This document shows positions 14,001-35,073 of a stretch of DNA of 61,933 bases, piece after piece. The number at the start of each line of letters is the position of its first letter. The stretch's first letter is position 1. The translations under genes were made by a program, and so were the position numbers. The notes beneath the pieces are model-generated. The model saw only the letters and a program-made list of their open reading frames with translations. It searched no databases and was not told where the DNA came from. This stretch comes from Acidimicrobiales bacterium. GTDB taxonomy: Bacteria > Actinomycetota > Acidimicrobiia > Acidimicrobiales > RAAP-2. The stretch is from assembly GCA_017883065.1 (NCBI GenBank), contig JADGOG010000001.1, forward strand, positions 1 through 61,933. Direction: 5' to 3'.

Positions 14001-14043
14001 TCGAGTCGGCGAGGGCCCGCGAGCCACTGGCTATAGTCACTCC

Positions 14044-17509: not shown

Positions 17510-17516
17510 GGACTCC

Positions 17517-18500: not shown

Positions 18501-18513
18501 CCGGGTGGCCCCG

Positions 18514-19608
18514 ATGACCGGGATCCACCAATTCGTCCCCATGCTCCATCGACACGATGCTGTGGGAGTGCACACGCGCACCCTCCGCGACCGGGTAGTG
18601 GCGGCAGGGATGTCCTCGCGCATCTACACGGAGATCCCCGATCCACTCACCCGCGACGAGACACGGCCCTACCTCGACTACGAGTCGGAGTGCGAGCCCG
18701 GTGACGTGCTCGTCTACCAATTCGCCACCCAGTCCGTCGTCGCCGATTGGGTGGCCGACCGTCCCGAGCCGGTGGTCCTCGACTACCACAGCATCACCCC
18801 GCCCGAGTTCTTCGGTCCATGGAACAACGGGATCACCCGTGGCCAGGTCGGAGCCCTGCACCAGCTGGCCCGGATGGCGCCCAAGGCGCGGCTGGGGATC
18901 GCCCACTCGCAATTCATCGCCGACGAGCTGCAGCGGGCCGGATGCGCGCTGACCACGGTCATTCCGGTGGCCGGCGTGCCGGTGCCCCCCACGGAGCCGA
19001 GTGCTGACACGGTGGCGTGGCTGCGGTCCCGTCGGCAGGGTGCAGGTCATCAGTGGCTGTCGGTCGGCCGTCTGGCGCCGAACAAGCGTCACGAGCAGAC
19101 CATCGCCGCCCTCTTCGTCGCCCGGACCTCTTCGGACCCTGGAGCGTGCCTGACCATTGTGGGATCGCCGACCGAGGCCTCCTATGCCCGGGCGCTGCGG
19201 ACGTACGCGGCGGCACTCGGTCTGGCCGACGCCGTCGTCTTCGTGTCAGGTATCAGCGACGAGGACCTGGCCGCGCACTACCGGACCGCCGACGTCCTGG
19301 TGATGCTCTCTGATCACGAGGGGTTCGGGGTGCCCCTGGTCGAGGCGATGGGTCACGGCCTCCCCGTCGTCGCCTATGACGGGGGTGCGGTCGGGGAGAT
19401 CCTCGGTGGGGCGGGGACCCTCCTCGGCACCAAGCATCCACGCCTGGTGGCGGACCAGGTGGCCGGGCTGCTGGCCGATGCGGAAGCGGTAGAGGAGCGG
19501 CGACGGGCGGGCAGGTCGCGCTTCGATGCGTTGGGCCTGGCCGACGTCGGTGATCGCCTGTTCGAGGCGGTCCTGAGCGCCTCTCGACCCGGTCCGAGAG
19601 ATCCCTGA
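18514..19608 (+). CDS. glycosyltransferase family 4 (GTa paralog 2)
   Basis: The start is chosen at the ATG at 18514 (MTGIHQFVPML..) because it aligns with the MTAIHQFVPAL of paralog 1; a GTG at 18505 is also possible. ..LSDHEGFGVPLVEAMGHGLPVVAYDGGAVGEIL.. Confidence 0.85.
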   Translation: MTGIHQFVPMLHRHDAVGVHTRTLRDRVVAAGMSSRIYTEIPDPLTRDETRPYLDYESECEPGDVLVYQFATQSVVADWVADRPEPVVLDYHSITPPEFFGPWNNGITRGQVGALHQLARMAPKARLGIAHSQFIADELQRAGCALTTVIPVAGVPVPPTEPSADTVAWLRSRRQGAGHQWLSVGRLAPNKRHEQTIAALFVARTSSDPGACLTIVGSPTEASYARALRTYAAALGLADAVVFVSGISDEDLAAHYRTADVLVMLSDHEGFGVPLVEAMGHGLPVVAYDGGAVGEILGGAGTLLGTKHPRLVADQVAGLLADAEAVEERRRAGRSRFDALGLADVGDRLFEAVLSASRPGPRDP

Positions 19609-19672
19609 CGGGGACCGGGTCCGGTCCGGGCCTGCGTCCGTGGGCAGACCTGAGCCACTAGGCTCTGGCCGC

Positions 19673-20341
19673 ATGGACGACACCCGCCACTTGGCTCTGC
19701 ACGCCTCCACCCCCCTCAGTGAGGGCCGTTCCCTCGAGATGCAGTCCGGTGCCGAGGTCGGTCCGGGCACCGACATCTTCCAGCGGCTGCTCAAGGAGCG
19801 GATCGTGTTCATCGGCTCGGCCATCGACCAGAACACCGCCAACCTTGTCTGCTCCCAGCTGATCCTGCTCGAGGCCGAGAATCAGGAGCGGGACATCTCG
19901 GTGTACATCAACTCGCCCGGTGGTTCGGTGACCGACGGCCTGGCCATCTACGACACCATGCAGTACGTGCGCTGCGACGTGCGCACCATCTGCGTGGGCC
20001 TGGCTGCGTCGATGGGCCAGTTCCTGCTGTGCGCCGGCACCCCGGGCAAGCGCTTCGCCCTGCCCCACAGCCGCATCCTCATGCACCAGCCCTCGGGCGG
20101 CATGCAGGGCCAGGCCTCCGACATCGCCATCCAGGCCGAGCAGATCATGTACCTGAAGCGGATGATGGCCGAACGCATCGCCTTCCACACCGGCCAGCCG
20201 CTGGAGCGGATCGAGGCGGACTCCGACCGTGACCGTTGGTTCACCGCCGAGGAGGCACAGGAGTACGGCTTCATCGACGAGGTCATCCAGAAGGACGCCA
20301 TGGACGTCCCGACTGCCGGGGCGGGGGCTGCCGGCAAGTGA
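19673..20341 (+). CDS. clpP: ATP-dependent Clp protease proteolytic subunit ClpP (ClpP1-like)
   Basis: [18 protein letters not shown]...[64 protein letters not shown]. The Ser (AASMG), His (MHQP) and Asp (DRD) triad positions are all present. The start is uncertain (GTG 19640, ATG 19673, or the internal ATG giving MQSGAEVG). Confidence 0.9.
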
Positions 20342-21324
20342 GCCTCAGCGTCGACCGGCCCCCAGGGTCGGAGCCCGAGCACGTCGCCACCATCGGGGGC
20401 AGCACCCGGTTCGTCCCCGGGCAGAGCCACGACCGGATCACCGTGGTCAACGGGAAGGTCGAGCTGGGCCGCAGGCTGAAGGATCTCTGGACCAACCGCG
20501 ACCTGCTGATCCTGCTCACCCGTACCGAGCTGAAGGTGAAGTACAAGAACTCGGTGCTCGGCTACGTGTGGTCGATGCTGAATCCGGCTCTGGTGCTGGG
20601 CATCTACTACGTGATCTTCAAGGTCATCGCCAAGACCTACCAGCCCCACTTCGCCATCTGGTTGTTCTGCGGTCTGCTGGTGTGGAACCTGTTCAACAAC
20701 GCGGCCATGGGCTCCACCACGGTGGTGGTGGGCAAGGCCGGGATCATCAAGAAGGTGGCGTTCCCGCGTGAACTCCTGGCCCTCTCGACGGTCGGGGTGG
20801 CCATGGTGCTCTTCGCCATCCAGGTGGTGGTGCTGGCTGTCTTCCTGCTGATCTTCCAACTCGTCCCGGACTGGCAGGCCATGATCCTCCTGCCACTGGC
20901 CCTGGTCACGCTGATCATCTTCACCAGTGCGGTGTCGATCTTCCTGTCGGCCGCCAACGTCTACCTACGTGACACCCAGCACCTCACCGAGGTGCTGTTG
21001 ATGGCGTGGTTCTGGGGAACGCCGATCGTCTATCCGTACGGCCAGGTCCAGAGCCACCTCGCCAACTGGCACCTGACCTGGCTCTACCTGGCCAACCCGA
21101 TCGCTCCGATCGCCATGTCCTTCCAGCGCGCCATCTATGGACAGACCTCTTACATCGCTTCCCAGAACAATCCGACCCACAAGGTCACGCCACTGCTCCC
21201 GAACGTCCCGCTGACCCAGTACGCGGCACTGCTTGGCATCATGTTCGTGGTGAGCATCGGGCTGTTCCTGGCGTCCCTGATCGTCTTCGGTCGGCTCGAG
21301 GGCAACTTCGCCGAGGAGCTCTGA
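20338..21324 (+). CDS. wzm: ABC-2 type polysaccharide/O-antigen export permease (Wzm-like)
   Basis: LWTNRDLLILLTRTELKVKYKNSVLGYVWSMLNPALVLGIYYVIF is the ABC-2 N-terminal signature, followed by about 6 hydrophobic spans. The start must lie upstream of that motif. The GTG at 20338 overlaps the clpP stop (GTGA). The ATG at 20236 would overlap clpP by about 100 nt. The exact start is uncertain. Confidence 0.8.
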   Translation: MSLSVDRPPGSEPEHVATIGGSTRFVPGQSHDRITVVNGKVELGRRLKDLWTNRDLLILLTRTELKVKYKNSVLGYVWSMLNPALVLGIYYVIFKVIAKTYQPHFAIWLFCGLLVWNLFNNAAMGSTTVVVGKAGIIKKVAFPRELLALSTVGVAMVLFAIQVVVLAVFLLIFQLVPDWQAMILLPLALVTLIIFTSAVSIFLSAANVYLRDTQHLTEVLLMAWFWGTPIVYPYGQVQSHLANWHLTWLYLANPIAPIAMSFQRAIYGQTSYIASQNNPTHKVTPLLPNVPLTQYAALLGIMFVVSIGLFLASLIVFGRLEGNFAEEL

Positions 21325-21327
21325 CCG

Positions 21328-22596
21328 GTGAGCGTCGCCATCGAGATCCGTGACATCTCCAAGCAGTTCCGCCTCTACAACGAGAAGCACACCTCGCTGA
21401 AGGAGCGGGTCATCCACGGCGGCAAGATGCCCTTCACCCCGTTCTGGGCACTGAAGAACATCACCGTCGACATCAACCAGGGGGAGACCTTCGGGATCCT
21501 CGGCCGGAACGGCTGCGGCAAGTCGACCCTGCTCAAGTGCGTGGCCGGCATCATCAAGCCGACCTCCGGCGAGATCAGGGTCCGGGGCAGCCTGGCCGCC
21601 ATGCTGGAGCTCGGAGCCGGCTTCCAGCCCGACCTCTCCGGTCGGGACAACATCTACCTCAACGGGTCGTTGCTCGGCCTCTCTCACTCGGAGATCGAGA
21701 AGCGGTTCGACGACATCGTTGCCTTCGCCGAGCTCGAGGAGTTCATCGACAACCAGGTCAAATTCTACTCGTCAGGCATGTACGTCCGACTTGGCTTCGC
21801 GGTGGCCGTCAACGTCGAACCCGATGTGCTGTTGGTCGATGAGGTGCTCGCAGTGGGGGACGCCAACTTCCAGCGCAAGTGCCTCGACCACGTGAAGAAG
21901 TTCCAACGCGAAGGTCGGACCATCGTGGTGGTCAGCCACGGCACCGACACCATTCGTCAGAACTGCAACCGGGTGATGGTGATGAACCATGGCCAGGTCA
22001 TCACCGTGGACGAACCCGGTGAGGGGATCCGGGTGTACATGGCCGACCTGCTCGGCGTGGGTACCCTCGAAGGTTCCGAATCGGGGGGAATCGAGGGGAA
22101 TGTTCTCGCCATCGGCACCGTCCAGGCCGAACACGGCGGCAGCGGAAGTCGGCCCCACATGTACGCCGGTGAGTCGTTGACCGTCACCGCCGATGTGGAC
22201 AGCCTGGCTGCCGTCCCCGACGCCATGGCCACGGTGGCCATCCATGACGACAGGAACGAGCTGGTCTTCGCCTCCGATCCCGATGATCCGGCATGCCAGA
22301 TGGAGATCCCCGAGGGTGGGGGGATCGTCCGGTTCTTCTTCCCGGAGGTGCCGTTGCTCGACGGCACCTACTCGGTCAGCGTGGGAGTCCGCAGCGAGAA
22401 GCAGACGGCCATCTTCGACTGGAAGGACCAGGTCACCCAGTTCGAGGTGGCCAATCCCGGTCGCACCACCGGTCGGGTGCGGCTCCCGCTCGACGTCAGC
22501 TTCCGGCTCCGCTCCAGCGGCCACACAGGAGAGGTTCCCGTGGTGAGTGGCATCCCGTTCGCCCCGTTGGCCGGATGGGAAGAGTCATCCGCGTGA
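21328..22596 (+). CDS. wzt: polysaccharide ABC exporter ATP-binding protein with extended C-terminal domain (Wzt-like)
   Basis: 422 aa with a GTG start 4 nt after the wzm stop. Walker A GRNGCGKSTLLK, signature YSSGMYVRLGFAVA, Walker B LLVDEVLAVGD. About 170 extra C-terminal residues (..LTVTADVDSL..VAIHDDRNELVF..DGTYSVSVGV..FEVANPG) resemble the Wzt carbohydrate-binding beta-sandwich. Confidence 0.9.
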   Translation: MSVAIEIRDISKQFRLYNEKHTSLKERVIHGGKMPFTPFWALKNITVDINQGETFGILGRNGCGKSTLLKCVAGIIKPTSGEIRVRGSLAAMLELGAGFQPDLSGRDNIYLNGSLLGLSHSEIEKRFDDIVAFAELEEFIDNQVKFYSSGMYVRLGFAVAVNVEPDVLLVDEVLAVGDANFQRKCLDHVKKFQREGRTIVVVSHGTDTIRQNCNRVMVMNHGQVITVDEPGEGIRVYMADLLGVGTLEGSESGGIEGNVLAIGTVQAEHGGSGSRPHMYAGESLTVTADVDSLAAVPDAMATVAIHDDRNELVFASDPDDPACQMEIPEGGGIVRFFFPEVPLLDGTYSVSVGVRSEKQTAIFDWKDQVTQFEVANPGRTTGRVRLPLDVSFRLRSSGHTGEVPVVSGIPFAPLAGWEESSA

Positions 22597-22603
22597 ACTG
22601 CCG

Positions 22604-23692
22604 GTGACGGTCAAGCGCATCGACCAGGTGATCCCGACACTGGCCAGTCGTGACGCCATCGGGGGACACGTCGTCCAACTGCGGGACCTGTTGCGCTCGC
22701 GGGGCTACCAGTCGGACATCTTCTACGGCCAAGCCTCGCCGGACCGCCTCGACTTCGGGCTGCCGGTCAGCCGCCTGGGGGACAAGTCGTCGAACGGCCG
22801 GGTCCTCATCTACCAGCTGTCCATCGGAAGCGGCGTCGCCGACATCTTCCGCCAGCGCAGTGAGCGGAAGTTCGTGAATTACCACAACATCACACCGGCC
22901 GACCTCCTCGAGGCGTGGGTACCGGCGGTGGGTGAAGAGGTGCGCTGGGGACGGGCCCAGCTGCGCGACCTCGCCCCGGTCACCGAATTCGCCATCGCCG
23001 ACTCGATGTTCAACGAACGCGAGCTCCAGGTGGCCGGGTACCGGTCGACCACCACGGTGCCCCTGTTGATCGACCTCGACGGCTTTTCCGGGACCCCCGA
23101 CCCGGTGCTCGCAGAGCGCCTCGCCGCGCAGAAGGCGGCCGGCGGGACGGATCTGTTGTTCGTCGGGAAGGTCTCCCCCCACAAGGGCCAGGATGACCTG
23201 GTCAAGGCGCTCGCCACCTACAGGCGCCTGTACGACCCGGACGCCCGCCTCCACCTGGTCGGTGGAGCCATCAGCGAGGAGTACCAGAACGCCCTCGAGC
23301 GGTTCGCCGACGAATTGGGGCTGCTCGACGCGGTGGAGATCGCCGGATCGGTCACCCACGAGGAGCTGATCGCCTACTACACCGGTGCGGACGCCTTCGT
23401 GTGCCTCTCCAATCACGAGGGCTTCTGCGTTCCCCTCCTCGAGGCGATGTACCACCGCCTCCCGATCGTGGCGCACACCACGACTGCAGTCCCCGAGACG
23501 GTGCAGGGTGCGGGGTTGATCCTGCCCAACAAGGAACCAGCCCGGGTGGCCGCGGCCATCAACCGGGTGGTCACCGATGCAACGTTGCGTTCAGCGCTGG
23601 CCCGGGCGGCCTCCGAGCGGGTCGAGACGTTCGCCCTGCCCCGGGTGCAGGACGGGTTCGCCTCGGCCCTCGAGGCTGCCTGCGCCGCGTGA
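22604..23692 (+). CDS. glycosyltransferase family 4 (GTa paralog 3)
   Basis: The track ORF 22547-23692 is trimmed to the GTG at 22604, just after the wzt stop. VTVKRIDQVIPTLASRDAIGGH.. aligns with the other GTa N-termini. ..LSNHEGFCVPLLEAMYHRLPIVAHTTTAVPETV.. Confidence 0.85.
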   Translation: MTVKRIDQVIPTLASRDAIGGHVVQLRDLLRSRGYQSDIFYGQASPDRLDFGLPVSRLGDKSSNGRVLIYQLSIGSGVADIFRQRSERKFVNYHNITPADLLEAWVPAVGEEVRWGRAQLRDLAPVTEFAIADSMFNERELQVAGYRSTTTVPLLIDLDGFSGTPDPVLAERLAAQKAAGGTDLLFVGKVSPHKGQDDLVKALATYRRLYDPDARLHLVGGAISEEYQNALERFADELGLLDAVEIAGSVTHEELIAYYTGADAFVCLSNHEGFCVPLLEAMYHRLPIVAHTTTAVPETVQGAGLILPNKEPARVAAAINRVVTDATLRSALARAASERVETFALPRVQDGFASALEAACAA

Positions 23693-23783
23693 GTGCCCAC
23701 TCGAGTGCGCATCCCGCCCGCCCGTAGCCGCCGTGGCTGCGGCCTACCGACGATGGTGCATGCTCGATGACAGCGGTGCTCCG

Positions 23784-24989
23784 ATGAAGGTGTCGTTCGT
23801 CGTCCCGCGCTACGGGCCGAGCATCATCGGCGGAGCGGAGACGGCGGCGCGCCTGCTGGCCGAGCATCTGGTGGCACAGAAGGGCTGGGAGGTAGAAGTC
23901 CTCACCAGCTGTGCCGAGGACTTCGTCACCTGGGCCGACGCGCTGTCCGAGGGACCCGACGTGATCAACGGGGTCACCGTGCGGAGGTTCCGGTCCGAGT
24001 CCGGTCGACACCCCTCGTTCCATCCGCTCTCCGCCTCGCTCCTGGCCGACCCGGCCAACGCCTCGCTGGACGACGCCCAACGCTGGGTGGACCTGCAGGG
24101 GCCGGTGGTCCCCGGGCTGGTCGACGCCGCCGTTCGGACTGACGCCGACGTGCTGGTGTTCTATCCCTACTTGTACCATCCGACCGTCCGGGTCATCGAC
24201 CGGGTATCGGTCCCGACCATCCTCCATCCGGCGGCCCACGACGAACCCGCCCTCCGGTTGCCGGTCTTCCCGGCGGTGTTCGCCGCCGCGGACGGGCTGG
24301 TGTTCCAGACATCGGCCGAGCGTGCCCTGGTTCAGGAGCTGTTCCCGGTGGCCACCCATCGCCAACTGCTTCTCGGATTGGGCGTGGACGATCCCGATCT
24401 CCTCCCGGACGGCGGTGTCGAGGAGGGGACGGACGTGTCGTCAGGAGGAGGAGCGGTGAGGGCAGATCCCTACGTGCTGTGTCTGGGGAGGATCGATCGG
24501 CACAAGGGCACGTCACTCCTGGCCGATCTGTTCGCCGCCTACGCCGACCGTCACGGGGGAAGCCTCCGACTGGTGCTGGCCGGCCCGGTGATCGACGCCC
24601 CACCTCCCCATCCGCGGATCGATGTCCTGGGTCCGGTCACGGACGTGGAGAAGTGGTCGCTGCTCCGTGGAGCGCAGGCCCTGGTGTCGCCGTCGGCCTG
24701 GGAGGCGTTCTCCTTGGTGGTGGCCGAGGCGTGGAGCGCCCGGACGCCGGTGTTGGTGAACGCCGCATGTGCGGCCACCGTCGAACACTGTCGTCGATCA
24801 GGAGGGGGACTCACGTTCGCCGGGTACGGCGAGTTCGAGGCGGCCATCGACCTGCTGACACTCGATGATCGGGCGAGGGCCTCGTTCGGCCACCGGGGAC
24901 GCCGCTACGTCGACCAGTGGTTCCGTTGGCCCCGGGTGATCGACCGGTACGCCGCGTTCATCGAGTCCGTGGTGGGGACGCCCCGCTGA
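23784..24989 (+). CDS. glycosyltransferase family 4 (GTb paralog 2)
   Basis: The track ORF 23577-24989 is trimmed to the ATG at 23784. MKVSFVVPRYGPSIIGGAETAARLLAEHL.. parallels 16262. ..PSAWEAFSLVVAEAWSARTPVLVNAACAATVEHCRRSGGGL.. An alternative ATG lies at 23760. Confidence 0.85.
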   Translation: MKVSFVVPRYGPSIIGGAETAARLLAEHLVAQKGWEVEVLTSCAEDFVTWADALSEGPDVINGVTVRRFRSESGRHPSFHPLSASLLADPANASLDDAQRWVDLQGPVVPGLVDAAVRTDADVLVFYPYLYHPTVRVIDRVSVPTILHPAAHDEPALRLPVFPAVFAAADGLVFQTSAERALVQELFPVATHRQLLLGLGVDDPDLLPDGGVEEGTDVSSGGGAVRADPYVLCLGRIDRHKGTSLLADLFAAYADRHGGSLRLVLAGPVIDAPPPHPRIDVLGPVTDVEKWSLLRGAQALVSPSAWEAFSLVVAEAWSARTPVLVNAACAATVEHCRRSGGGLTFAGYGEFEAAIDLLTLDDRARASFGHRGRRYVDQWFRWPRVIDRYAAFIESVVGTPR

Positions 24990-27137: not shown

Positions 27138-29417
27138 ATGGAAGCAGTACCGGACATGAGGAATGCAGCCGACGGCCGGAAGGCCGAGAGGAGTTGGTTC
27201 CGCCGGGGCGCCACCGGAGGCATTGCCGTACTCGGAGTGTTCGGATCGATGGCGGGAGCAGGGGCGCTTGCCGGCCCGGCCCAGGCCGCGTCGCCCGCCC
27301 CCCATGCCGGGGTGGCCACCTCCCTCACCTGGCAACAGGTTCTCCCCGACGCCGGCTCGCCCATCGGGCAGAGCTCACCCTCGGAGGCCACCCTCGACGG
27401 CGGGGGTCCCTCGACGGTGGTGGGGGATCGCGCCGGCAACGTCTGGGCCTTCCACCTGGCCAACGGTTCACCGGTCCGGGGATGGCCGGCCCAGGCGGGT
27501 GGACCGGTCGATTCGACCCCGTCCTCCAGCCCGAATGGCACCGGCACCGACACGGTGTTCGTGGGCTCGGGGAACGCGGCGAATCCACGAGTGGGCGGCT
27601 ATCACGCCTTCGCCAACACCGGCGCGTCGTTGTGGAGTCGCAATGCCCAGGACCCCAACGGCCTCTATGGCGTCCAGGCTTCGCTGTCGGTGGGAACACT
27701 CAACGGAGTGAGGGGTGTGGCGGCCCCGTCACTCGGCCAAGAGGCGTACGCCCTCAACGCCGCAAACGGCTCGTCGCTCCCCGGCTGGCCTTTCTTCACC
27801 GCGGACAGCGGCTTCACCACGCCCTCGCTCGCCAACCTCTACGGGAACGGCCAGACCGAGGTGGTCGAGGGCGGGGACTCCTCGGCCGGTATCGCCAATG
27901 GACAGACCTATACGTCGGGCGGGCACCTGCGGATCCTGGACGGGGGCGGGAACCTGATCTGCCACTTCGACACCAACCAGACCGTCGACTCCTCGACGGC
28001 GGTGGGCAACTTCCTGGCCGGTGGCCAGGTGGGAGTTGCCTTCGGCACGGGATCGTTCTTCCGGGGGGCATCCGACTCCAACATGCTGTTCGGCTCCGAC
28101 TCCCACTGCAACATCGTCTGGCGGAGCAACCTCGGTGGCAACACCGTGGGGAGCCCGGCCATCGGGGACATCGTGGGTGACGGGAACGTCGAGGTCATCG
28201 AAGGCGCCGACACCGGCTCCGGCGGCCTGGTGTGGGCGCTCAACGGCGCCAACGGCACGCCGGTGCCCGGATGGCCCCAGCGGACCTCGGGCCGGATCAT
28301 CGGTGGCATCACCACCGCCGACCTCACCGGCGGCGGGTACAACGACGTCCTGGTCCCGACCACCAACGGTCTGGTCATCTACGACGGTCGCAGCGCACAG
28401 GTGGTGGCCACGCTGGGGGCCGGCGTGATGGGCCTGCAGAACTCCGCCATGGTGGCCATCGACCCGAACGGCACCATCGGGATCACCATCGCCGGCTACA
28501 GCTCGCAGAACGCCGGGATCATCCAGCACTACGAGGTCGCCGGCTCGACCGGGCACTCGTTGGGCAAGCGGGCCTGGCCGATGTTCCACCAGAACCCGCA
28601 GTTGACCGGATGGCTGAGCCAGCCGGCCCCCGGGCACCTGAACAGGCCGATCGTGGGCATGGCCGCCACCGGGGACGCCAAGGGGTACTGGAACGTGGCC
28701 ACAGACGGAGGGATCTTCTCCTTCGGGGACGCCTCCTTCCACGGCTCGACCGGGAACCTGCGGCTGAACAGACCGATCGTGGGCATGGCCGCCACTCCCG
28801 ATGGAGGCGGGTACTGGCTGGTGGCCAGTGACGGAGGCATCTTCTCCTTCGGCGACGCCCGCTTCTTCGGCTCCACCGGCAATCTCCACCTGAACAGACC
28901 GGTCGTGGGCATGGCCGCCACTTCCGACGGCAAGGGCTACTGGATGGTGGCCTCGGACGGCGGCATCTTCAGCTTCGGCGACGCCCGCTTCCACGGCTCC
29001 ACCGGCAATCTCCATCTGAACAGACCGGTCGTGGGCATGGCCGCCACTCCCGATGGAGGGGGGTACTGGATGGTGGCCTCGGACGGCGGCATCTTCTCCT
29101 TCGGGTCGGCCCGGTTCTTCGGCTCGACCGGGAACCTGCGCCTCAACCAGCCGGTGGTGGGCATGACGCCCACTCCCGATGGCCACGGGTACTGGTTCGT
29201 GGCCTCGGACGGAGGCATCTTCTCCTTCGGCGACGCCCGCTTCTTCGGCTCGATGGGGGGAAAGCACCTCAATCTGCCCATCGTGGCCATGGCCTCCAAC
29301 CACGGGAACGGCTACTGGTTGGCAGCTGCAGACGGCGGCCTCTTCTCCTTCGGGAGCGCCCCCTTCTACGGCTCGATGCCCCAGGTGTTCGCCTCGCAGG
29401 TCACCGGGGTCGACTGA
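27138..29417 (+). CDS. secreted FG-GAP/VCBS-type beta-propeller protein with C-terminal 6 x 42-aa GYW/SDGG repeat module
   Basis: 759 aa. The signal peptide has RR (..RSWFRRGATGGIAVLGVFGSMAGAGALAGPAQA), possibly Tat. The N-terminal half shows alternating ..NG.P..GWP.. and FG-GAP-like calcium-loop motifs (LYGNGQTEVVEGG, IVGDGNVEVIEGA, LTGGGYNDVLVPT). The C-terminal 250 aa consist of six tandem repeats. Confidence 0.8.
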   Translation: MEAVPDMRNAADGRKAERSWFRRGATGGIAVLGVFGSMAGAGALAGPAQAASPAPHAGVATSLTWQQVLPDAGSPIGQSSPSEATLDGGGPSTVVGDRAGNVWAFHLANGSPVRGWPAQAGGPVDSTPSSSPNGTGTDTVFVGSGNAANPRVGGYHAFANTGASLWSRNAQDPNGLYGVQASLSVGTLNGVRGVAAPSLGQEAYALNAANGSSLPGWPFFTADSGFTTPSLANLYGNGQTEVVEGGDSSAGIANGQTYTSGGHLRILDGGGNLICHFDTNQTVDSSTAVGNFLAGGQVGVAFGTGSFFRGASDSNMLFGSDSHCNIVWRSNLGGNTVGSPAIGDIVGDGNVEVIEGADTGSGGLVWALNGANGTPVPGWPQRTSGRIIGGITTADLTGGGYNDVLVPTTNGLVIYDGRSAQVVATLGAGVMGLQNSAMVAIDPNGTIGITIAGYSSQNAGIIQHYEVAGSTGHSLGKRAWPMFHQNPQLTGWLSQPAPGHLNRPIVGMAATGDAKGYWNVATDGGIFSFGDASFHGSTGNLRLNRPIVGMAATPDGGGYWLVASDGGIFSFGDARFFGSTGNLHLNRPVVGMAATSDGKGYWMVASDGGIFSFGDARFHGSTGNLHLNRPVVGMAATPDGGGYWMVASDGGIFSFGSARFFGSTGNLRLNQPVVGMTPTPDGHGYWFVASDGGIFSFGDARFFGSMGGKHLNLPIVAMASNHGNGYWLAAADGGLFSFGSAPFYGSMPQVFASQVTGVD
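28638..29393 (+). repeat. six in-frame tandem repeats, period 126 nt (42 aa): LN.P.VGMA.TPDG.GYW.VASDGGIFSFGDA.F.GSTGNL
   Basis: Direct reading shows six units: LNRPIVGMAATGDAKGYWNVATDGGIFSFGDASFHGSTGNLR, LNRPIVGMAATPDGGGYWLVASDGGIFSFGDARFFGSTGNLH, LNRPVVGMAATSDGKGYWMVASDGGIFSFGDARFHGSTGNLH, LNRPVVGMAATPDGGGYWMVASDGGIFSFGSARFFGSTGNLR, LNQPVVGMTPTPDGHGYWFVASDGGIFSFGDARFFGSMGGKH, LNLPIVAMASNHGNGYWLAAADGGLFSFGSAPFYGSM. Confidence 0.9.
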
Positions 29418-29496: not shown

Positions 29497-29570
29497 GACT
29501 AGTCAGAGTGCCGACACCGACCATGCGGCCATCACGGAGAGTTGAGAAGTCAGTGGGACGGGAAAGGACG

Positions 29571-31538
29571 ATGGCGACCACGGTGCGAACCCGCAAGCGG
29601 TCGTGGGTGGCGCGGTTCGTGGCCGCTGCGGTCATCGGATCCGGACTGGGCGTGGCTGTGACTTCGCTGCCGGCCTCGGCCTATCCGTCGTCGACGGTCT
29701 CCTTCGTGGGCCACGGCTACGGACATGGCCACGGCATGGGCCAGTGGGGTGCCCTCGGCTACGCCCTGTCCCAGACCGGTTACCAGTCGATCCTCGGGCA
29801 CTACTACGGAGGAACGTCGCTGGTCGGTGGCGTGTCCGACCAGCCGATCCGGGTGGCCCTGACCGAGAACAACGACAACACGGTGATCGTGACGTCGGGC
29901 TCGGGCCTCACCGTGCCAGGAACGCCGGTCGCCGCGGCAGCCGTGGAGATGGTCCCGACCGGGTCGAACCAGTGGACCGTCTATCAGGGGCCGGGGTGCG
30001 GGGGGCCATGGACGCAGGTGGCGACGACAGCCGACCCGACGGCGGTGCCCAACGGCCCGCAGCTGCTCCAACTCTGTCAGGGTGGTGGCAATCTGACAGT
30101 CCACGGCAACATCCAGGCCACCTACAACTCGGCCGGTGCGGCACGCACGGTCAACAGCCTGCCCCTGGAGCAGTACGTGGCCGACGTGGTGCCCAACGAG
30201 TCACCTGCAGGGTGGGGGACGTTCGGAGGTGCGGGACCCCAGGGCCAGGCCTGGGGATTCCAGGAGCTGGAAGCCCAGGCGGTGGCCGTGCGCTCCTACG
30301 CCATGGCCGGCATCGGGTCCTACGGGGGGTACGCCGACATGTGTGACCTGAGTTGCCAGACCTACCGGGGAACCCTCCACGAGAGTGCCATCACCAACCT
30401 GGCCGCCAGTGTCACTGCCGGTCAGGTGATGAGGTTCGCATCGGGAGCGGTGGCCGCCACCCAGTACTCGGCCTCGACCGGTGGCTACACGGCACCAGGT
30501 GCGTTTCCGGCGGCCCCTGATGCGGGGGACGCGGTGTGCGTGCAGGGTTGGTGCAACACCAGCCACACCTGGACGGCGTCGATCCCCGTGTCGACGATCG
30601 ACGCCACTTGGCCCCAGCTCGGGTCACTCCAGTCGATCAGCATCACCGCCCGCAACGGGTTCGGCGACTGGGGTGGGCGGGTCAACTCGATGGCCCTGAT
30701 CGGGTCCAGCCAGACTGTCGTGCTCTCCGGGGACGCCTTTGCCGGTGCCCTGGGACTGAAGTCGGACTGGTTCACCACCTCCACCTCGCTGGGCAGCCCG
30801 GCGGTGGGCATGGCCTCGACCCCGGACGGTGGCGGCTACTGGATTGCCGGCGCCAATGGCGCAGTCGGAGCCTTCGGTGACGCCGGCTTCCACGGATCGG
30901 CCAGCGACCTCACCCTGACCCGTCCGGTCGTGGGCACTGCGGCAACCCCCGATGGAAGTGGCTACTGGCAGGTGGCGTCCGACGGAGGCGTCTTCAGCTT
31001 CGGTGCCGCCCGCTTCCACGGATCGACCGGCAATCTCCGCCTCAACCAACCCATCGTGGGCATGGCGTCCACCGCCGACGGCGGCGGCTACTGGATGGTC
31101 GCCTCCGACGGCGGCATCTTCTCCTTCGGCGACGCCCACTTCTACGGCTCGACCGGCAATCTCCGCCTCAACCGACCGGTGGTGGGCATGGCGACCACCT
31201 CGGACGGGATGGGGTACTGGCTGGTGGCGTCCGACGGCGGAGTCTTCTCCTTCGGCGACGCCCGGTTCTACGGCTCGACCGGGAACCTGCGCCTGAACCG
31301 ACCGGTGGTGGGCATGGCGACGGCGCCCGGCGGCGGCTACTGGATGGTCGCCTCCGACGGCGGCATCTTCTCCTTCGGCAGTGCACGGTTCCGCGGGTCG
31401 ACCGGAAACCTTGCCCTGGTGAAGCCGGTGGTGGGCATGGCGTCCACCTCCGACGGCGGCGGCTACTGGATGGTCGCCTCCGACGGCGGCATCTTCTCCT
31501 TCGGCGACGCCGCCTTCCACGGGTCCGCCGCCGGATAA
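29571..31538 (+). CDS. secreted SpoIID/LytB-domain protein with C-terminal 6 x ~42-aa GYW/SDGG repeat module
   Basis: The track ORF 29508-31538 is trimmed to the ATG at 29571 (GGAAAGGA upstream). Signal peptide ..VAAAVIGSGLGVAVTSLPASA. SpoIID hallmarks VSFVGHGYGHGHGMGQWGALGYA, LEQYVADVVPNESPAGWG and ELEAQAVAVRSYA are present. The C-terminal 249 aa form six repeats of the same family as in the upstream gene. Confidence 0.85.
   Translation: MATTVRTRKRSWVARFVAAAVIGSGLGVAVTSLPASAYPSSTVSFVGHGYGHGHGMGQWGALGYALSQTGYQSILGHYYGGTSLVGGVSDQPIRVALTENNDNTVIVTSGSGLTVPGTPVAAAAVEMVPTGSNQWTVYQGPGCGGPWTQVATTADPTAVPNGPQLLQLCQGGGNLTVHGNIQATYNSAGAARTVNSLPLEQYVADVVPNESPAGWGTFGGAGPQGQAWGFQELEAQAVAVRSYAMAGIGSYGGYADMCDLSCQTYRGTLHESAITNLAASVTAGQVMRFASGAVAATQYSASTGGYTAPGAFPAAPDAGDAVCVQGWCNTSHTWTASIPVSTIDATWPQLGSLQSISITARNGFGDWGGRVNSMALIGSSQTVVLSGDAFAGALGLKSDWFTTSTSLGSPAVGMASTPDGGGYWIAGANGAVGAFGDAGFHGSASDLTLTRPVVGTAATPDGSGYWQVASDGGVFSFGAARFHGSTGNLRLNQPIVGMASTADGGGYWMVASDGGIFSFGDAHFYGSTGNLRLNRPVVGMATTSDGMGYWLVASDGGVFSFGDARFYGSTGNLRLNRPVVGMATAPGGGYWMVASDGGIFSFGSARFRGSTGNLALVKPVVGMASTSDGGGYWMVASDGGIFSFGDAAFHGSAAG
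30789..31535 (+). repeat. six in-frame tandem repeats (123-126 nt) of the same GYW..SDGG.FSFGDA family
   Basis: The units begin LGSPAVGMASTPDGGGYWIAGANGAVGAFGDAGFHGSASDLT, LTRPVVGTAATPDGSGYWQVASDGGVFSFGAARFHGSTGNLR, LNQPIVGMASTADGGGYWMVASDGGIFSFGDAHFYGSTGNLR, LNRPVVGMATTSDGMGYWLVASDGGVFSFGDARFYGSTGNLR, LNRPVVGMATAPGGGYWMVASDGGIFSFGSARFRGSTGNLA, LVKPVVGMASTSDGGGYWMVASDGGIFSFGDAAFHGSAAG. A 52-nt string (CGGCGGCGGCTACTGGATGGTCGCCTCCGACGGCGGCATCTTCTCCTTCGGC) occurs exactly three times, at 31079, 31328 and 31454. Confidence 0.9.
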
Positions 31539-31569: not shown

Positions 31570-34269
31570 GTGCCACGTCCTAAGGTGCTGCGTGCGATGA
31601 CCGAACGCACGAACCATGGCAGTCCCGGCCCCGAACTGCAGGCACCGGCAGCCTCCTCTGAGGCGGCCCGTCCGGCCGCCGGCGCGCCTCCGGCGGCTGA
31701 CGATGGGTCCGCCGCCTCCGTCGCAGTCCCGACATCCACGGCCAGGCTCGGCCGGTGGCGTCAGGGAGCAGGGACGTGGCAGGCGATCCTCTTCGCCCCG
31801 ATAGGAGACGGGCAGACCCGGCGCAGGGGATCGGATGCCTTCCGGCTCGGGACCGCCCTGGTAGTCGTCTTCCTGTGTTGGCTCTTCACCCACGCCAACT
31901 CGAATGCCGAGCACGGGATCGCCACCACGCTCGCCTCCCCGCCGAACGGGCTCCGCTGGCTCGTGTCGGCCATCTGGTGGATCACGTCGTTCGGCGTGAT
32001 CGTGGTGATCGCCGCTCTGGCCCTGATCCACCGGAAATGGACAGCGGTCCGTGACATTGCCATCTCGGGGACCGGCGCCTGGCTGCTCTGTGTGCTCTCG
32101 GCGCTCCTCTTCGGCTCCACCGGCGGGCGGCCCCCCACCACGTCCCTGGTTCACTTCGACCTGTCGTTCCCCGTGGCGAGGGTGGCGGCCACCGTGGGCG
32201 TGGCCACGGCGGCGCTGCCCTACCTGAGCCGGTTGCTGCAGCGCTGCATCGAGGTGGGGATCGTGCTGCTGGCGGTGGCGTCGGTGGTCAACGGCTCCGG
32301 ACTGCCGGTCGCCGTCCTGGCCAGCCTGGCGGTCGGCTGGGGAGTCACCGCTGTGGTCCATCTGATCTTCGGATCACCCCTGGGCCTGCCCTCGTCCGCC
32401 GAGGTGACCGTGCTCCTGGACGATCTGCAGATCGCCGCCGAGGGGATCACCCCGGTGGCCCGCCAGGCATGGGGTGTGGGACGGTTCACCGGTCGGGTGG
32501 GCAGCGCTCCGGTCGACGTCTCGGTATACGGACGGGATGCCTCTGACGCACAGCTCCTGGCCAAGACCGGGCGGTTCCTCTTCTACCGGTCGTCGGGCCC
32601 CACGCTCGCTTTCACCCGCCGCCAACAGGTCGAGCACGAGGCGTACCTGACCCTGATGGCGGCGCGTGCCGGGGCCCGGGTTCCGGTGGTCCTGGCCGCC
32701 GGTCCGGCCGGTCCGGCGCGAGACGCTCTTCTGGTGACCCAGCCCCCCGCCGGGGACCGGCTGTCGTCGTTCGCCGCCTACGTCCCGCCCCCGGCATCGG
32801 AGGACTCCGGAGCCGACGCCTCCGGCGACCGGGCATCGGAGGACACCGGGTCGTCCGCACCGCCCCCGGCCGCTCCCGATGACGCAGTCGACGGTGCGCC
32901 GGTCGTCGACGACGCGGCCATCGACGACGTCTTCACCCAGGTGCTCCGCCTTCGCAACGCCGGGATCGCCCATGGCGCCCTCTCCACCGAAACGGTCGTG
33001 GTGGACGGTGAGGGCCGGGCCGGCCTCATCGACTTCAGATCGGCACTGACCGTCGCTCCGCCCGACGACCTCAACCGGGACACCGCCGCCGTCCTGGCTG
33101 CCGCCTCGGTGACGGTGGGGCCGGACCGGGCCGTCGCCTCGGCGGCCCGGGTCCTGCCCTCCGATGTGCTGGTGCAGGCCCTGCCCTTCCTGCAGCGGGC
33201 GGCACTCGACCCGGTGGCCTCCCGCACCTTGCGGGGCAAGAAGTCCATGCTCACCTCGGCCAGGGCGCAGGGGGCGGCGACGGCCGGCGTGGAGACACCC
33301 AAGCTCATCGAACCCCGACGGGTCAGCTGGGTCAACCTCGTGCTCGTCGTCGGCACGCTGATCGGCGGGTGGGCCCTGATCGGCGTCCTGGTCAACGTGG
33401 GCAAGTCGTGGAGCACCATCACCGGGGCCAAGTGGGGATGGGTGGCCGCCACGTTCGTCCTGGCCCAGGCCGCCTACCCGGCCATCGCCGCCACCACCGT
33501 GGGCTCGGTGACCAGCACCCTGCCCTACGGCCGCACGGTCGCCCTCGAGGTGGCCGATACCTTCGTGGCCCTGGCCGGCGGCTCGATGGCCACGCTGGCC
33601 ACCCGGGTCCGCTTCTTCCAGCAGGAGGGCCTCAGTCCCACCGTGGCGGTGAGTTCGGGCGTGCTGGTCAGCACCGCAAGTTGGATCGTCAAGGGCGCAC
33701 TGTTCCTGATCGCCCTTCCGCTCGCCATCGGCCAGCTGCACTTCCACGCGGAGTCGGACACCCCGAGCAACGGGAACGCCCACCTGGTGTGGCTGATCGT
33801 GATCGTGGTGCTGGTGGTGGGGGTGGCCGTCGGTCTCCTCTTCGCCGTCCCCCGCTGGCGGCGCATGGCCACCGAGAAGGTGCGGCCCAAGGCATCCGAG
33901 GTGTGGGCCCACCTCAAGGTGCTGGCCTCCCGGCCGCGCAATCTGATCGAGATCTTCGGGGGAAGCGCCCTGGCCCAGATCTTCGTGGCCCTGGCCCTCG
34001 GCGCCGCCCTCCACGCCTTCGGTGACCGCCTCGGCCTGGCCACCCTGCTGGTGGTGCTGACCATGGCCTCGATGCTCGGGGGCATCTCGCCGGTTCCCGG
34101 CGGGATGGGGGTGGTCGAGGCCGGCATGATCCTCGGGCTGACCGCCGCCGGGATCAGTCAGCCCGACGCGGTGGCGGCCACCTTCGTCCAGAGGCTGTTC
34201 ACCGCCTACCTGCCGCCGATCTGGGGTTGGTTCGTCCTGGTGTGGCTGCGCAGGCGCGAGTACCTGTGA
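31570..34269 (+). CDS. large integral membrane protein: N-terminal TM bundle + degenerate protein-kinase-like domain + C-terminal flippase-like (LPG synthase TM/UPF0104-type) domain
   Basis: 899 aa (GTG 31570, or ATG 31597). About 6 hydrophobic spans are followed by a soluble region with kinase-like landmarks (VDVSVYGRD.., EHEAYLTLMAARAGARVP, AGIAHGALSTETVVVD, GLIDFRSA). A second bundle of about 8 spans ends in MLGGISPVPGGMGVVEAGMILGL, the P.PGG.G..E signature of the MprF-flippase/UPF0104 family. Confidence 0.7.
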   Translation: MPRPKVLRAMTERTNHGSPGPELQAPAASSEAARPAAGAPPAADDGSAASVAVPTSTARLGRWRQGAGTWQAILFAPIGDGQTRRRGSDAFRLGTALVVVFLCWLFTHANSNAEHGIATTLASPPNGLRWLVSAIWWITSFGVIVVIAALALIHRKWTAVRDIAISGTGAWLLCVLSALLFGSTGGRPPTTSLVHFDLSFPVARVAATVGVATAALPYLSRLLQRCIEVGIVLLAVASVVNGSGLPVAVLASLAVGWGVTAVVHLIFGSPLGLPSSAEVTVLLDDLQIAAEGITPVARQAWGVGRFTGRVGSAPVDVSVYGRDASDAQLLAKTGRFLFYRSSGPTLAFTRRQQVEHEAYLTLMAARAGARVPVVLAAGPAGPARDALLVTQPPAGDRLSSFAAYVPPPASEDSGADASGDRASEDTGSSAPPPAAPDDAVDGAPVVDDAAIDDVFTQVLRLRNAGIAHGALSTETVVVDGEGRAGLIDFRSALTVAPPDDLNRDTAAVLAAASVTVGPDRAVASAARVLPSDVLVQALPFLQRAALDPVASRTLRGKKSMLTSARAQGAATAGVETPKLIEPRRVSWVNLVLVVGTLIGGWALIGVLVNVGKSWSTITGAKWGWVAATFVLAQAAYPAIAATTVGSVTSTLPYGRTVALEVADTFVALAGGSMATLATRVRFFQQEGLSPTVAVSSGVLVSTASWIVKGALFLIALPLAIGQLHFHAESDTPSNGNAHLVWLIVIVVLVVGVAVGLLFAVPRWRRMATEKVRPKASEVWAHLKVLASRPRNLIEIFGGSALAQIFVALALGAALHAFGDRLGLATLLVVLTMASMLGGISPVPGGMGVVEAGMILGLTAAGISQPDAVAATFVQRLFTAYLPPIWGWFVLVWLRRREYL

Positions 34270-34281
34270 GCACCGACGCCC

Positions 34282-35073
34282 TCAGAGCCTGCTCGGTGCG
34301 GCGCCAGTGCCGGGTCCGGTGTCCCCCAACCTGGCGAAGCCGCGGAGCTTCCCGAAGCGGCCCAGTCGGCCCACGTTGACCCCGACGTCGGCCGCGCCCA
34401 GCATCCGCAGGTCGCCGCGGCTGTCGCCGTAGGCCCACAGGACACCCCCGCCAGCGCTGCCTCCCGCACCGCCGGCGTCGTCGATCCACTCCCGCAGGCG
34501 CCGGAGCTTCTCCTCTCCCCGGCAGTTCGCACCGTCGTAGCGACCGGTCAGCGTGCCCTGCGCATCGACGGCGAGCCGGGTGGCGATGACCTCGTCGGCA
34601 CCGAGGAACCCGCCCACCTCGCGGACGTAGAGCTCGGGCGAGGCCGAGACGATGACCACCCGGTCGCCGCGGTGACGGTGCCAGTCGAACCGGGACCGCA
34701 CGTCGCTGCGCAGGTGCCGGTCCAGGTGCTCGCGTGCGAAGCGCACCGCCACTTGTCCGACCCGCTCGGCGTCGGCGCCGGCCAGCACCCGCTCGAACAG
34801 TCGCTCCTTGGTGCGGTCGGCCACCGTTCCGCTCACGAGGGCGGCATGGGCCAACCGGGGGGAGAGGGCGACCGCGGCCGTTGCCACCGCCCGACGACCC
34901 ACCACGGCCGAGAGGAACTTGAACACGCTCCCTCCGTCGGTGAGGGTCCCGTCGAAGTCGAACGCTGCGATGTCAGGCACGGTGTTCTGACGGAGGACCG
35001 GCAGTTGGCGTGCCCAGGCTGCCACCACCGCGGCCGGCTCCGGAGGCGAAGGCGGCGGCACCGGTGCTGGCAT
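34282..35073 (-). CDS. HAD-IB family hydrolase/phosphatase (SerB-like)
   Basis: 263 aa. Motif I AAFDFDGTLT; motif IV region AYGDSRGDLRMLGAAD. The annotated start overlaps the upstream crotonase gene by about 100 nt, so the true start may be an internal GTG (e.g. near 35028 or 34998). Confidence 0.75.
   Translation of the reverse strand: MPAPVPPPSPPEPAAVVAAWARQLPVLRQNTVPDIAAFDFDGTLTDGGSVFKFLSAVVGRRAVATAAVALSPRLAHAALVSGTVADRTKERLFERVLAGADAERVGQVAVRFAREHLDRHLRSDVRSRFDWHRHRGDRVVIVSASPELYVREVGGFLGADEVIATRLAVDAQGTLTGRYDGANCRGEEKLRRLREWIDDAGGAGGSAGGGVLWAYGDSRGDLRMLGAADVGVNVGRLGRFGKLRGFARLGDTGPGTGAAPSRL

Follow-up and report, generated by a model that had tools for sequence, protein, structure and literature searches.

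In the 61,933-bp contig JADGOG010000001.1 of an uncultured soil Acidimicrobiales bacterium (assembly GCA_017883065.1; the whole stretch is referred to below as the window), the plus-strand open reading frame (ORF) at 31570..34269 was found to encode a predicted inner-membrane protein with 14 transmembrane (TM) helices, in which a six-TM bundle of the PAP2 fold, a cytoplasmic domain of the kinase fold and an eight-TM PplT (MprF-flippase) domain follow one another in a single polypeptide. The first two modules have lost most of the residues expected of active enzymes, and the third retains its conserved core. Comparison with homologues places the protein in a large Acidimicrobiales family, predicted to be the catalytically dead sister lineage of a family of actinomycetotal PAP2–kinase–PplT proteins in which both enzymatic modules are intact. 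The features on which this account is built are as follows.

31570..34269, plus strand: whole gene, pseudo-PAP2/pseudokinase/PplT flippase protein; 899 aa from GTG 31570, 890 aa from ATG 31597
31570..31824, plus strand: N-terminal tail, residues 1–85; disordered (predicted local distance difference test score, pLDDT, 30–41), poorly conserved, predicted to be cytoplasmic by positive-inside count
31825..32385, plus strand: six-TM pseudo-PAP2 module, residues 86–272; family N-terminal alignment matched by hhalign to PAP2 domains in long relatives
32128..32133, plus strand: remnant of PAP2 motif C1 (KxxxxxxRP); R187-P188 retained, Lys lost
32167..32181, plus strand: remnant of PAP2 motif C2; FPVAR replaces F-x-S-G-H, the catalytic His becoming Arg204
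32278..32316, plus strand: remnant of PAP2 motif C3; ASVVNGSGLPVAV replaces GRVYVGAHFPLDV
32392..33294, plus strand: cytoplasmic protein-kinase-like pseudokinase domain, residues 275–575; AlphaFold2 models, Foldseek, profile against the PDB, motif tables
32512..32532, plus strand: beta3 strand VDVSVYG, residues 315–321; Ser318 where the ATP-binding Lys is expected, followed by the family signature G321-R322-D323
32617..32646, plus strand: alphaC signature RRQQVEHEAY, residues 350–359; alphaC Glu355 retained, family EHE motif
32776..32907, plus strand: hinge insert between the lobes, residues 403–446; variable, low-complexity, Pro/Ala/Ser/Asp-rich, disordered (pLDDT 35–40)
32971..32994, plus strand: degenerate catalytic loop HGALSTET, residues 468–475; Asp replaced by Ala470 and Asn by Thr475, live relatives having HRDLRxxN
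33031..33039, plus strand: D488-F489-R490 in place of DFG; metal-binding Asp kept, Gly replaced by Arg
33325..34266, plus strand: eight-TM PplT/MprF-flippase subdomain-1 domain, residues 586–899; PF03706, NF033480 and MprF-chain profile, the most conserved part
34090..34125, plus strand: PVPGGMGVVEAG motif, residues 841–852; invariant, Glu850 aligned with the MprF gate Glu
34192..34194, plus strand: Arg875; invariant, aligned with the MprF gate Arg (Y-R-L)

The gene and its product

The 899-aa ORF proposed in an earlier, sequence-based note on this DNA was confirmed as real, with a GTG start and a GC content at third codon positions of 0.89, which is of the coding type (GC content of the contig, 70 %). 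The public gene call prefers ATG 31597, nine codons downstream, although the choice is of little weight because residues 1–85 are disordered and unconserved; the tail ends in the Arg-rich stretch TRRRGSDAFR, directly ahead of TM1. Hydropathy, the helices of the AlphaFold2 model and the positive-inside rule predict that the N-terminus is cytoplasmic and that six TM helices are followed by the kinase-like domain and, after it, by the helices of PplT; the kinase-like domain, the side of which the earlier note had left to be predicted, is placed in the cytoplasm. Mean pairwise identity is highest in the PplT domain (0.85), followed by the pseudokinase core (0.70) and the pseudo-PAP2 module (0.64), and falls to 0.28 in the hinge insert. 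On these values purifying selection acts strongly on all three modules, the two dead domains included.

The central pseudokinase domain

The central region had been read in the earlier note as a small atypical kinase in which the beta3 Lys and the catalytic Asp and Asn are lost and the metal-binding Asp remains, and both the fold and the losses have been borne out. In the full-length AlphaFold2 model the domain is built with a pLDDT of 85–97, and when modelled alone from a diverse alignment it is bilobal (pLDDT 83.5, predicted template modelling score 0.78). Foldseek searches of the PDB returned only kinase-type structures for the full-length model, including CurKC, PknA/B, WbdD and Rio2, and 1292 matches at E<=1e-3 for the domain-only model, of which the 50 that were listed all represent kinases or kinase domains. 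With a profile built from divergent members of the family, 1270 PDB sequences were matched at E<=1, led by Rio2 (8e-7) and including WbdD (4e-6) and Bud32 (1e-4). Sequence searches of NCBIfam and the PDB gave weak Bud32/RIO matches only, centred on the catalytic loop. The scores (10–18 bits for Bud32 models with cut-offs of 125–246, 12.5 bits for Rio1 with a cut-off of 480) and a loop of HGALSTET where these kinases have HGDLSxxN or HGDLTxxN leave the domain outside the RIO and Bud32 families as these are defined.

All motifs quoted in the earlier note lie where it had placed them, HGALS at exactly nt 32971–32985 and LIDFRSA as residues 486–492 (nt 33025–33045). The structural core of the kinase fold is kept (alphaC Glu, HxD His, DF Asp and alphaF Asp), whereas the beta3 Lys, the Asp, the Asn and the DFG Gly are lost; without the first three of these the domain is a pseudokinase by sequence definition. 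Among 120 close homologues with 63–80 % identity, E355, H468, D488 (120/120) and D504 are invariant, position 318 is Ser in 112 and Ala in six, position 470 is Ala in 62, Ser in 51 and Arg in six, position 475 is Thr in 114, and Lys, Asp and Asn are never present at the beta3, HxD and Asn positions, respectively. Their loss is fixed in the clade, far beyond chance. The spacing from the DF(R) motif to the alphaF Asp is 16 residues, and the domain therefore has no activation loop or APE motif, as is the case in RIO/Bud32/Kdo/APH-type kinases.

The DFR variant of DFG (R490, nt 33037–33039) is fixed in the query clade only, with Arg in 119 of the 120 close homologues. Together with the retained R187-P188 of the N-terminal module, this fixation could reflect residual binding of phosphate or another ligand. 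The hinge insert is clade-specific as well; its length and sequence vary strongly even among close relatives, and it is mostly absent from relatives of about 800 aa. A relocated catalytic lysine of the WNK kind at position 332 was considered and rejected, with K or R found there in 32 of 36 sequences without a beta3 K/R and in 18 of 25 sequences with the beta3 K.

The N-terminal pseudo-PAP2 module

The flippase and kinase-like parts described in the earlier note were both recovered, but a third module, a degenerate PAP2 domain, had been missed. It was recognized by hhalign, in which the family alignment of the N-terminal region matched the Pfam-verified PAP2 units of three long relatives (P0142, P0169 and P0202) with a probability of 99.7 % (E 2.4e-25, 187 columns); the query module is collinear with these PAP2 domains. 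The possibility that this module is a duplicate of the PplT domain was ruled out (hhalign probability 0.3 %), and TM composition is therefore not the cause of the PAP2 match. A direct search of the query with PF01569 detected no PAP2 domain, and PF03706 is the single domain that Pfam finds in the protein.

Scoring of motifs C1 (KxxxxxxRP), C2 (PSGH) and C3 (SRxxxxxHxxxD) revealed replacements at seven of the nine catalytic-motif positions in the query, K, S, G, H, R, H and D having become A, V, A, R, S, G and A, with only the Arg-Pro of C1 kept; in C3 these are the changes of Arg to Ser238, His to Gly244 and Asp to Ala248. The replacements extend through the close clade, where the S, G and H of C2 each stand at 0 % (96–100 % in the family with intact motifs) and C1 has R in 100 %, P in 97 % and K in 0 % of sequences. 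The retention of R187-P188 at 97–100 % is specific to the query clade and has been lost in sister branches. The remnants lie in three loops that the positive-inside rule places outside, a position matching the outward-facing active site of PAP2 enzymes of the PgpB type. The N-terminal bundle is, by these alignments, a PAP2 lipid-phosphate phosphatase that is predicted to be catalytically dead.

The C-terminal PplT domain

The identification of the C-terminal bundle as a UPF0104/LPG-synthase TM domain was fully supported. PF03706 (LPG_synthase_TM) matches residues 593–886 over model positions 2–302 of 302, with 79.4 bits and a cut-off of 33.4, and TIGR00374 and NF033480 (MprF) match the same domain, the latter over model positions 25–296 of 841 only and with 56 bits against a cut-off of 600. 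No Pfam match at E<=1 to the C-terminal aminoacyl-phosphatidylglycerol (aaPG) synthase domain (DUF2156/PF09924) was obtained with the query, and a phmmer search of PDB sequences with its PplT domain found nothing. A PplT family profile that includes both dead and live members matched the solved MprF chains at E 2.4e-5 across the whole eight-TM subdomain 1.

Neither the PxPGGxGxxE motif (P841–E850) nor R875 varies, and the two correspond to '...PGGVGVFE...YRL' in the alignment with MprF, the spacing between Glu850 and Arg875 being 25 residues compared to 24 in MprF. In RtMprF the residues aligned with E850 and R875, Glu280 and Arg304, form a gate between two lipid cavities (PMC8131360). The core of the domain, including this Glu–Arg pair, is intact, and as judged from its sequence it is a translocator domain. 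The PplT domain of PaMprF has been described as an energy-independent, promiscuous scramblase, with a substrate preference proposed to stem from the fused enzyme by proximity (PMC11980842).

Relatives with intact catalytic motifs

The three long relatives, P0142 (1978 aa), P0169 (1923 aa) and P0202 (1586 aa), are built from tandem units of PAP2, kinase and PF03706 domains. Their kinase domains (Pkinase/APH/Kdo/RIO1) all score above the gathering thresholds and carry a canonical HRDLRxxN and DFG together with the family signatures GRD and [LV]EHE. The kinase of unit 1 is often degenerate (HRQLRPDH and no DFG in P0142; Asp of DFG replaced by Gly in P0169), unit 2 is fully canonical and the PAP2 motifs are intact in both units, which hints that the units may work as dimers of a live and a dead kinase.

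A search with one canonical unit retrieved 833 proteins, mostly single-unit, of 780–825 aa and with Pfam PAP2, Pkinase/APH and PF03706 domains. They include proteins of Actinomadura madurae (P0411), A. citrea (P0413), Actinomarinicola tropica (P0421) and an Egibacteraceae metagenome-assembled genome (MAG). Some carry the automatic annotation 'undecaprenyl-diphosphatase' or 'membrane-associated phospholipid phosphatase/YbhN'; P0413 is named 'lysylphosphatidylglycerol synthase domain-containing protein' and P0411 'phosphatase PAP2 family protein'. The query aligns with the A. citrea protein in BLASTP at E 4e-34 over 665 collinear residues, and it shares 25–34 % identity as well as the three modules and their order with the proteins of A. 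citrea (820 aa), A. tropica (783 aa) and A. madurae. GRD after beta3, [LV]EHE in alphaC and PxPGGxGxxE are common to both sides, whereas K-x6-RP, SGH, R-x5-H-x3-D, the kinase K and E, HRDLRxxN and DFG are kept at >=96 % in the live proteins and nearly all lost in the query, which has in addition a disordered hinge insert of about 45 aa and the longer tail at its N-terminus.

When the two families were aligned jointly, 112 live members were found to retain each of the nine PAP2 motif residues and every catalytic residue of the kinase at 96–100 %. In 119 close relatives of the query, the PAP2 K/S/G/H/R/H/D and the kinase K/D/N and DFG Gly stand at 0 %, and the alphaC E, the H, the DFG D, the alphaF D and the PplT motif at 100 %. 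In a neighbour-joining tree, the live members sampled (35 of 35) group in a single clade that excludes all degenerate proteins, in a live sample that comes from one search and is biased. The live proteins share their motifs with the PAP2 and kinase superfamilies at large, so the degenerate state must be derived, and given the collinear homology to a live tri-domain family the pseudokinase is a decayed enzyme domain. The earlier note had compared the loop with the HGDLS..N of RIO/Kdo/ABC1-type kinases; the live relatives carry HRDLRxxN, not the RIO-type HGDLSxxN.

Size and spread of the degenerate family

The architecture, the distribution of which the earlier note had raised as a question, proved to be widespread. 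One search yielded 1335 homologues, and a profile of the central domain yielded 2048 clusters (50 % identity; 1295 of them with E<=1e-10), the majority being of 790–820 aa and having the same layout. A scan of GTDB species representatives, restricted to pattern-matching relatives, confirmed at least 429 loci; the best 80, which were examined, all come from Acidimicrobiales/Acidimicrobiaceae MAGs, and the one organism-named member of a divergent branch is an Acidimicrobiales MAG as well.

In a divergent set of 70 aligned sequences (the query and 69 representatives that share 28–63 % identity with it) there is free variation in the catalytic loop, which reads HGALS, HGRLD, HGALN or, rarely, HGDL, and none of the 70 has the catalytic Asp and Asn together. 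A sister branch of 119 sequences keeps the Lys in 99 %, the Glu in 100 % and the DF Asp in 94 %, and its loop is a conserved H-G-x-L-D-x-x-R. Decay has therefore gone to different lengths in different branches, and furthest in the query clade.

Comparison with known systems

The membrane part of MprF, a bifunctional aaPG synthase/flippase, comprises 8 + 6 TM helices, and with MprF and the stand-alone PplT/YbhN proteins (PF03706, COG0392) the query shares a full-length PF03706 domain with a conserved Glu–Arg gate and PGGxGxxE motif. The total of 14 TM helices, divided into 8 + 6, is common to MprF and the query, but the six-TM bundle of the query is N-terminal and PAP2-derived rather than MprF subdomain 2, there is no aaPG synthase (DUF2156) domain, and the soluble domain is kinase-like and precedes the PplT domain instead of following it. 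PAP2 phosphatases of the PgpB, BcrC and LpxE type have a six-TM core and carry their motifs in loops on the extracytoplasmic side, as in the query, in which the catalytic His, Arg, Asp, Lys and Ser are all replaced and only the C1 Arg-Pro is kept.

For the soluble domain, RIO2, Bud32, Kdo (WaaP) and WbdD give the best sequence-profile matches and several of the best fold matches, and share with it the short spacing from DFG to alphaF and the absence of an activation loop and APE motif. The scores nevertheless lie far under the family cut-offs (18 bits for Bud32, where the cut-off is 188), and the Lys, Asp and Asn are missing from the query. Unlike RIO2 and Bud32, it has neither a RIO winged helix nor a KEOPS context, and its kinase-like domain is flanked on both sides by membrane-embedded TM modules.

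The earlier note had likened the protein to the mycobacterial flippase MviN and taken it for an independent, differently built version of the same idea. MviN/MurJ of M. tuberculosis (Rv3910, ActPs3) is indeed, like the query, a lipid-flipping membrane protein with an intracellular kinase-fold domain unable to catalyse phosphotransfer (PMC12599244). However, the flippase belongs to the MOP/MurJ superfamily in MviN and to PplT in the query, which has no Pfam match to MurJ/MVIN; the pseudokinase of MviN is of the Hanks type (ActPs3, with VALT/Lsidhpsr motifs) and C-terminal, whereas that of the query derives from a small kinase without an activation loop and lies ahead of the flippase domain; and MviN is regulated by PknB/FhaA, with no such partners among the window genes scanned. 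The resemblance is one of analogy, not of homologous architecture, and the notion of an independent design gives way to homology with the live tri-domain family.

Fusions of protein kinases with PplT in Actinobacteria were listed among the commonest architectures in a 2022 preprint on PplT, which mentions neither PAP2 nor pseudokinases nor any experiment (10.1101/2022.03.11.483950), and a review of pseudokinases in bacteria from 2025 deals with MviN but with no fusion to a flippase like the present one (PMC12599244). A literature search for the combination of PAP2, flippase and kinase returned nothing relevant. Kinase–PplT fusions are thus already known, and the double-pseudoenzyme reading is new.

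Proposed function and alternative explanations

The preferred reading, to which we assign a probability of about 0.55, is that the protein still translocates or scrambles a lipid by means of its PplT domain. This domain would move a phospholipid or a lipid phosphate of the polyprenyl-phosphate type between the leaflets, probably passively, as in PaMprF (PMC11980842). Neither the pseudo-PAP2 module nor the pseudokinase would contribute catalysis; they may have been retained by selection as a partner TM bundle (6 + 8 TM helices, like subdomains 2 + 1 of MprF) or, alternatively, because they bind headgroups, act in gating or provide a dimerization surface. Several points weigh against this reading. 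The link to PAP2 depends on intermediate sequences, with Pfam finding no PAP2 domain in the query itself; the dead and the live families are both experimentally uncharacterized; and the strict conservation of the DF Asp, the alphaC Glu, GRD, EHE and the C1 Arg-Pro could reflect residual ligand binding or unusual chemistry rather than a purely structural role.

A different role for the dead modules would be that of a pseudo-subunit, the protein being the obligate heterodimer partner that regulates or positions a live PAP2–kinase–PplT paralogue encoded elsewhere in the genome. The natural tandem fusions, in which the kinase of unit 1 is often degenerate and that of unit 2 canonical, would fit such a pairing, as would the homodimer of RtMprF (PMC8131360), the dimeric population of PaMprF (PMC11980842) and the occurrence of live members, such as that of Actinomarinicola tropica, within the class Acidimicrobiia. 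Yet the window contains no live paralogue, nor do 85 related loci within 10 kb of the gene, and the tandem proteins keep their PAP2 motifs in both units, unlike the query; we regard the heterodimer as unlikely, although worth keeping in mind. The mode of regulation known from MviN, in which the pseudokinase would be phosphorylated by a Ser/Thr kinase and bound by an FHA protein that switches the flippase on or off, was suggested by the analogous layout of flippase and intracellular pseudokinase (PMC12599244), and the disordered, Ser/Thr/Asp-rich insert 403–446 could carry phosphosites. That insert is, however, unconserved (28 % identity) and largely absent in most of the family, the flippase superfamily is a different one, and the domain descends from a small kinase without an activation loop that was fused to lipid enzymes, not from a Hanks-type signalling kinase. 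The Ser/Thr kinase or FHA partner that the earlier note had envisaged did not turn up among the 44 window ORFs scanned against Pfam (two of them probable shadow ORFs), and we give this mechanism little credence.

An equally small chance is allotted to the protein being a non-canonical enzyme, in which an active site rearranged as in SelO or SidJ would modify a lipid headgroup before the PplT domain flips the lipid, following the logic of MprF. PplT domains are typically fused to lipid-modifying enzymes (10.1101/2022.03.11.483950, PMC11980842); the clade shows no variation at G321-R322-D323, E355-H356-E357, H468-G469, D488 or D504, and the sister branch combines its nearly universal Lys, Glu and DF Asp with a conserved HGxLDxxR loop. 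On the other hand, the residues conserved across the family either belong to the structural kinase core or are conserved in the live family as well, K332 is not supported as a relocated lysine, and the clades share no alternative catalytic set, each having a catalytic loop of its own (HGALSTET, HGxLDxxR, HGALNxxN). The loss of catalytic residues from two of three modules might finally be taken as the mark of an evolutionary relic, a decaying gene without function. The ORF is nevertheless intact in hundreds of genomes, the gene being present in no fewer than 429 species representatives of GTDB and in over 2000 clusters (50 % identity); all modules are under strong purifying selection and the motif replacements are fixed rather than random; this explanation is the least credible of all and is effectively refuted by the conservation data.

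Implications for lipid transport

Bacterial lipid flippases are poorly understood, and the origin of the substrate preference and direction of PplT proteins is an open question; to our knowledge, MprF was until recently the sole characterized member. The present analysis defines a very large unannotated family, named 'flippase-like' or 'YbhN' in databases, in which a PplT domain is permanently joined to two pseudoenzymes, and the occurrence of a pseudo-phosphatase and a pseudokinase within one polypeptide is unusual in itself. It also uncovers a sister family, intact in its catalytic motifs, that combines an outward lipid phosphatase, an inward small kinase and a flippase. The dead and live families form a natural experiment on which parts of the tri-domain design remain needed without catalysis, and experiments are feasible in that the live carriers include cultured Actinomadura and Actinomarinicola strains.

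It may be speculated, as a rather improbable but far-reaching extension, that the live PAP2–kinase–PplT proteins are hitherto unrecognized, ATP-driven vectorial lipid transporters and that the dead family is their decoupled descendant, either a passive scramblase or the regulatory half of a live/dead heterodimer. If this were true, the small kinase would phosphorylate a lipid of the inner leaflet, PplT would flip it and the outward PAP2 domain would remove the phosphate, resulting in directional transport or recycling of phospholipid or polyprenyl phosphate, and the two-unit fusions would foreshadow the heterodimer. The dead and live families together raise testable hypotheses on phosphorylation-coupled lipid translocation and on the use of pseudoenzyme scaffolds in the membrane homeostasis of Actinomycetota.

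Genomic context

The gene is preceded by genes of the cell envelope, namely those for a SpoIID/LytB-domain protein 32 bp away, a secreted repeat protein and a protein of about ten TM helices, with GT4 glycosyltransferases, Wzm/Wzt, a methyltransferase and a GT-C enzyme further upstream. Downstream lie a convergent HAD-IB hydrolase, an ECH protein, a peroxiredoxin and PNPase. The principal neighbours are the following.

29508-31538, plus strand: SpoIID/LytB-domain protein; TIGR02669, 95 bits, one N-terminal hydrophobic helix
27138-29417, plus strand: unannotated 759-aa protein; one N-terminal hydrophobic helix
24990-26912, minus strand: 640-aa protein with about ten TM helices; no Pfam or NCBIfam match, syntenic in 52 of 80 loci
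~12075-24989: ABC-transporter-dependent glycan locus; PMT_2 GT-C enzyme, MetW-like methyltransferase, four GT4 glycosyltransferases, Wzm, and Wzt with a Wzt_C carbohydrate-binding domain
34282-35073, minus strand: HAD-IB family hydrolase; TIGR01490, 130 bits, convergent, 12 bp from the target gene, present in 73 of 80 close loci

The order of the SpoIID-like, HAD-IB, ECH, peroxiredoxin and PNPase genes is conserved in 62–73 of the 80 close loci, all of which belong to close relatives. The neighbourhoods of five divergent members are unrelated and contain none of these neighbours, and the context therefore gives no family-wide functional clue. A functional linkage based on synteny was accordingly set aside, with conservation confined to close relatives and absent in five of five divergent members. 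The adjacency to a glycopolymer locus pointed out in the earlier note stands in part: glycan genes are present in the window and synteny is found within the close Acidimicrobiales clade, but the locus lies about 6.6 kb off, beyond three genes, and the synteny is absent in the five divergent members. A role in glycan chain termination, like that of WbdD and in concert with the Wzm/Wzt(+Wzt_C) locus nearby, was rejected despite the good profile and fold match to WbdD, the catalytic residues being absent, the locus 6.6 kb away and the link clade-specific. A functional link between the HAD-IB hydrolase and the target gene is conceivable by analogy, HAD–PplT fusions being among the rarer architectures listed in the PplT preprint (10.1101/2022.03.11.483950).

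A YihY/BrkB-family (PF03631) gene lies within 3 kb of the family member in three of the divergent loci (L081, 7098-7994; L082, 12909-13844; L083, 11233-12228). As a family-wide association this was discarded, such a gene being found in three of the five divergent loci, in none of the 80 close loci and nowhere in the window.

The proteins encoded at 29508-31538 and 27138-29417 both end in C-terminal tandem repeats of about 40 aa, 'GGGYW.VASDGGIFSFGDA.F.GS', which are probably beta-propeller-like, wall-associated repeats; their genes are syntenic with the target gene in 62–66 of 80 Acidimicrobiales loci. The N-terminal region of the 640-aa protein looks by eye like a GT-C/PMT-type glycosyltransferase. 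Two long, Arg-rich minus-strand ORFs without family matches, at 16232-17518 and 17540-18646, are most likely shadow ORFs of plus-strand genes in this high-GC contig. A ClpP ORF (19640-20341) is embedded in the glycan locus, and its end overlaps the start of the listed Wzm ORF.

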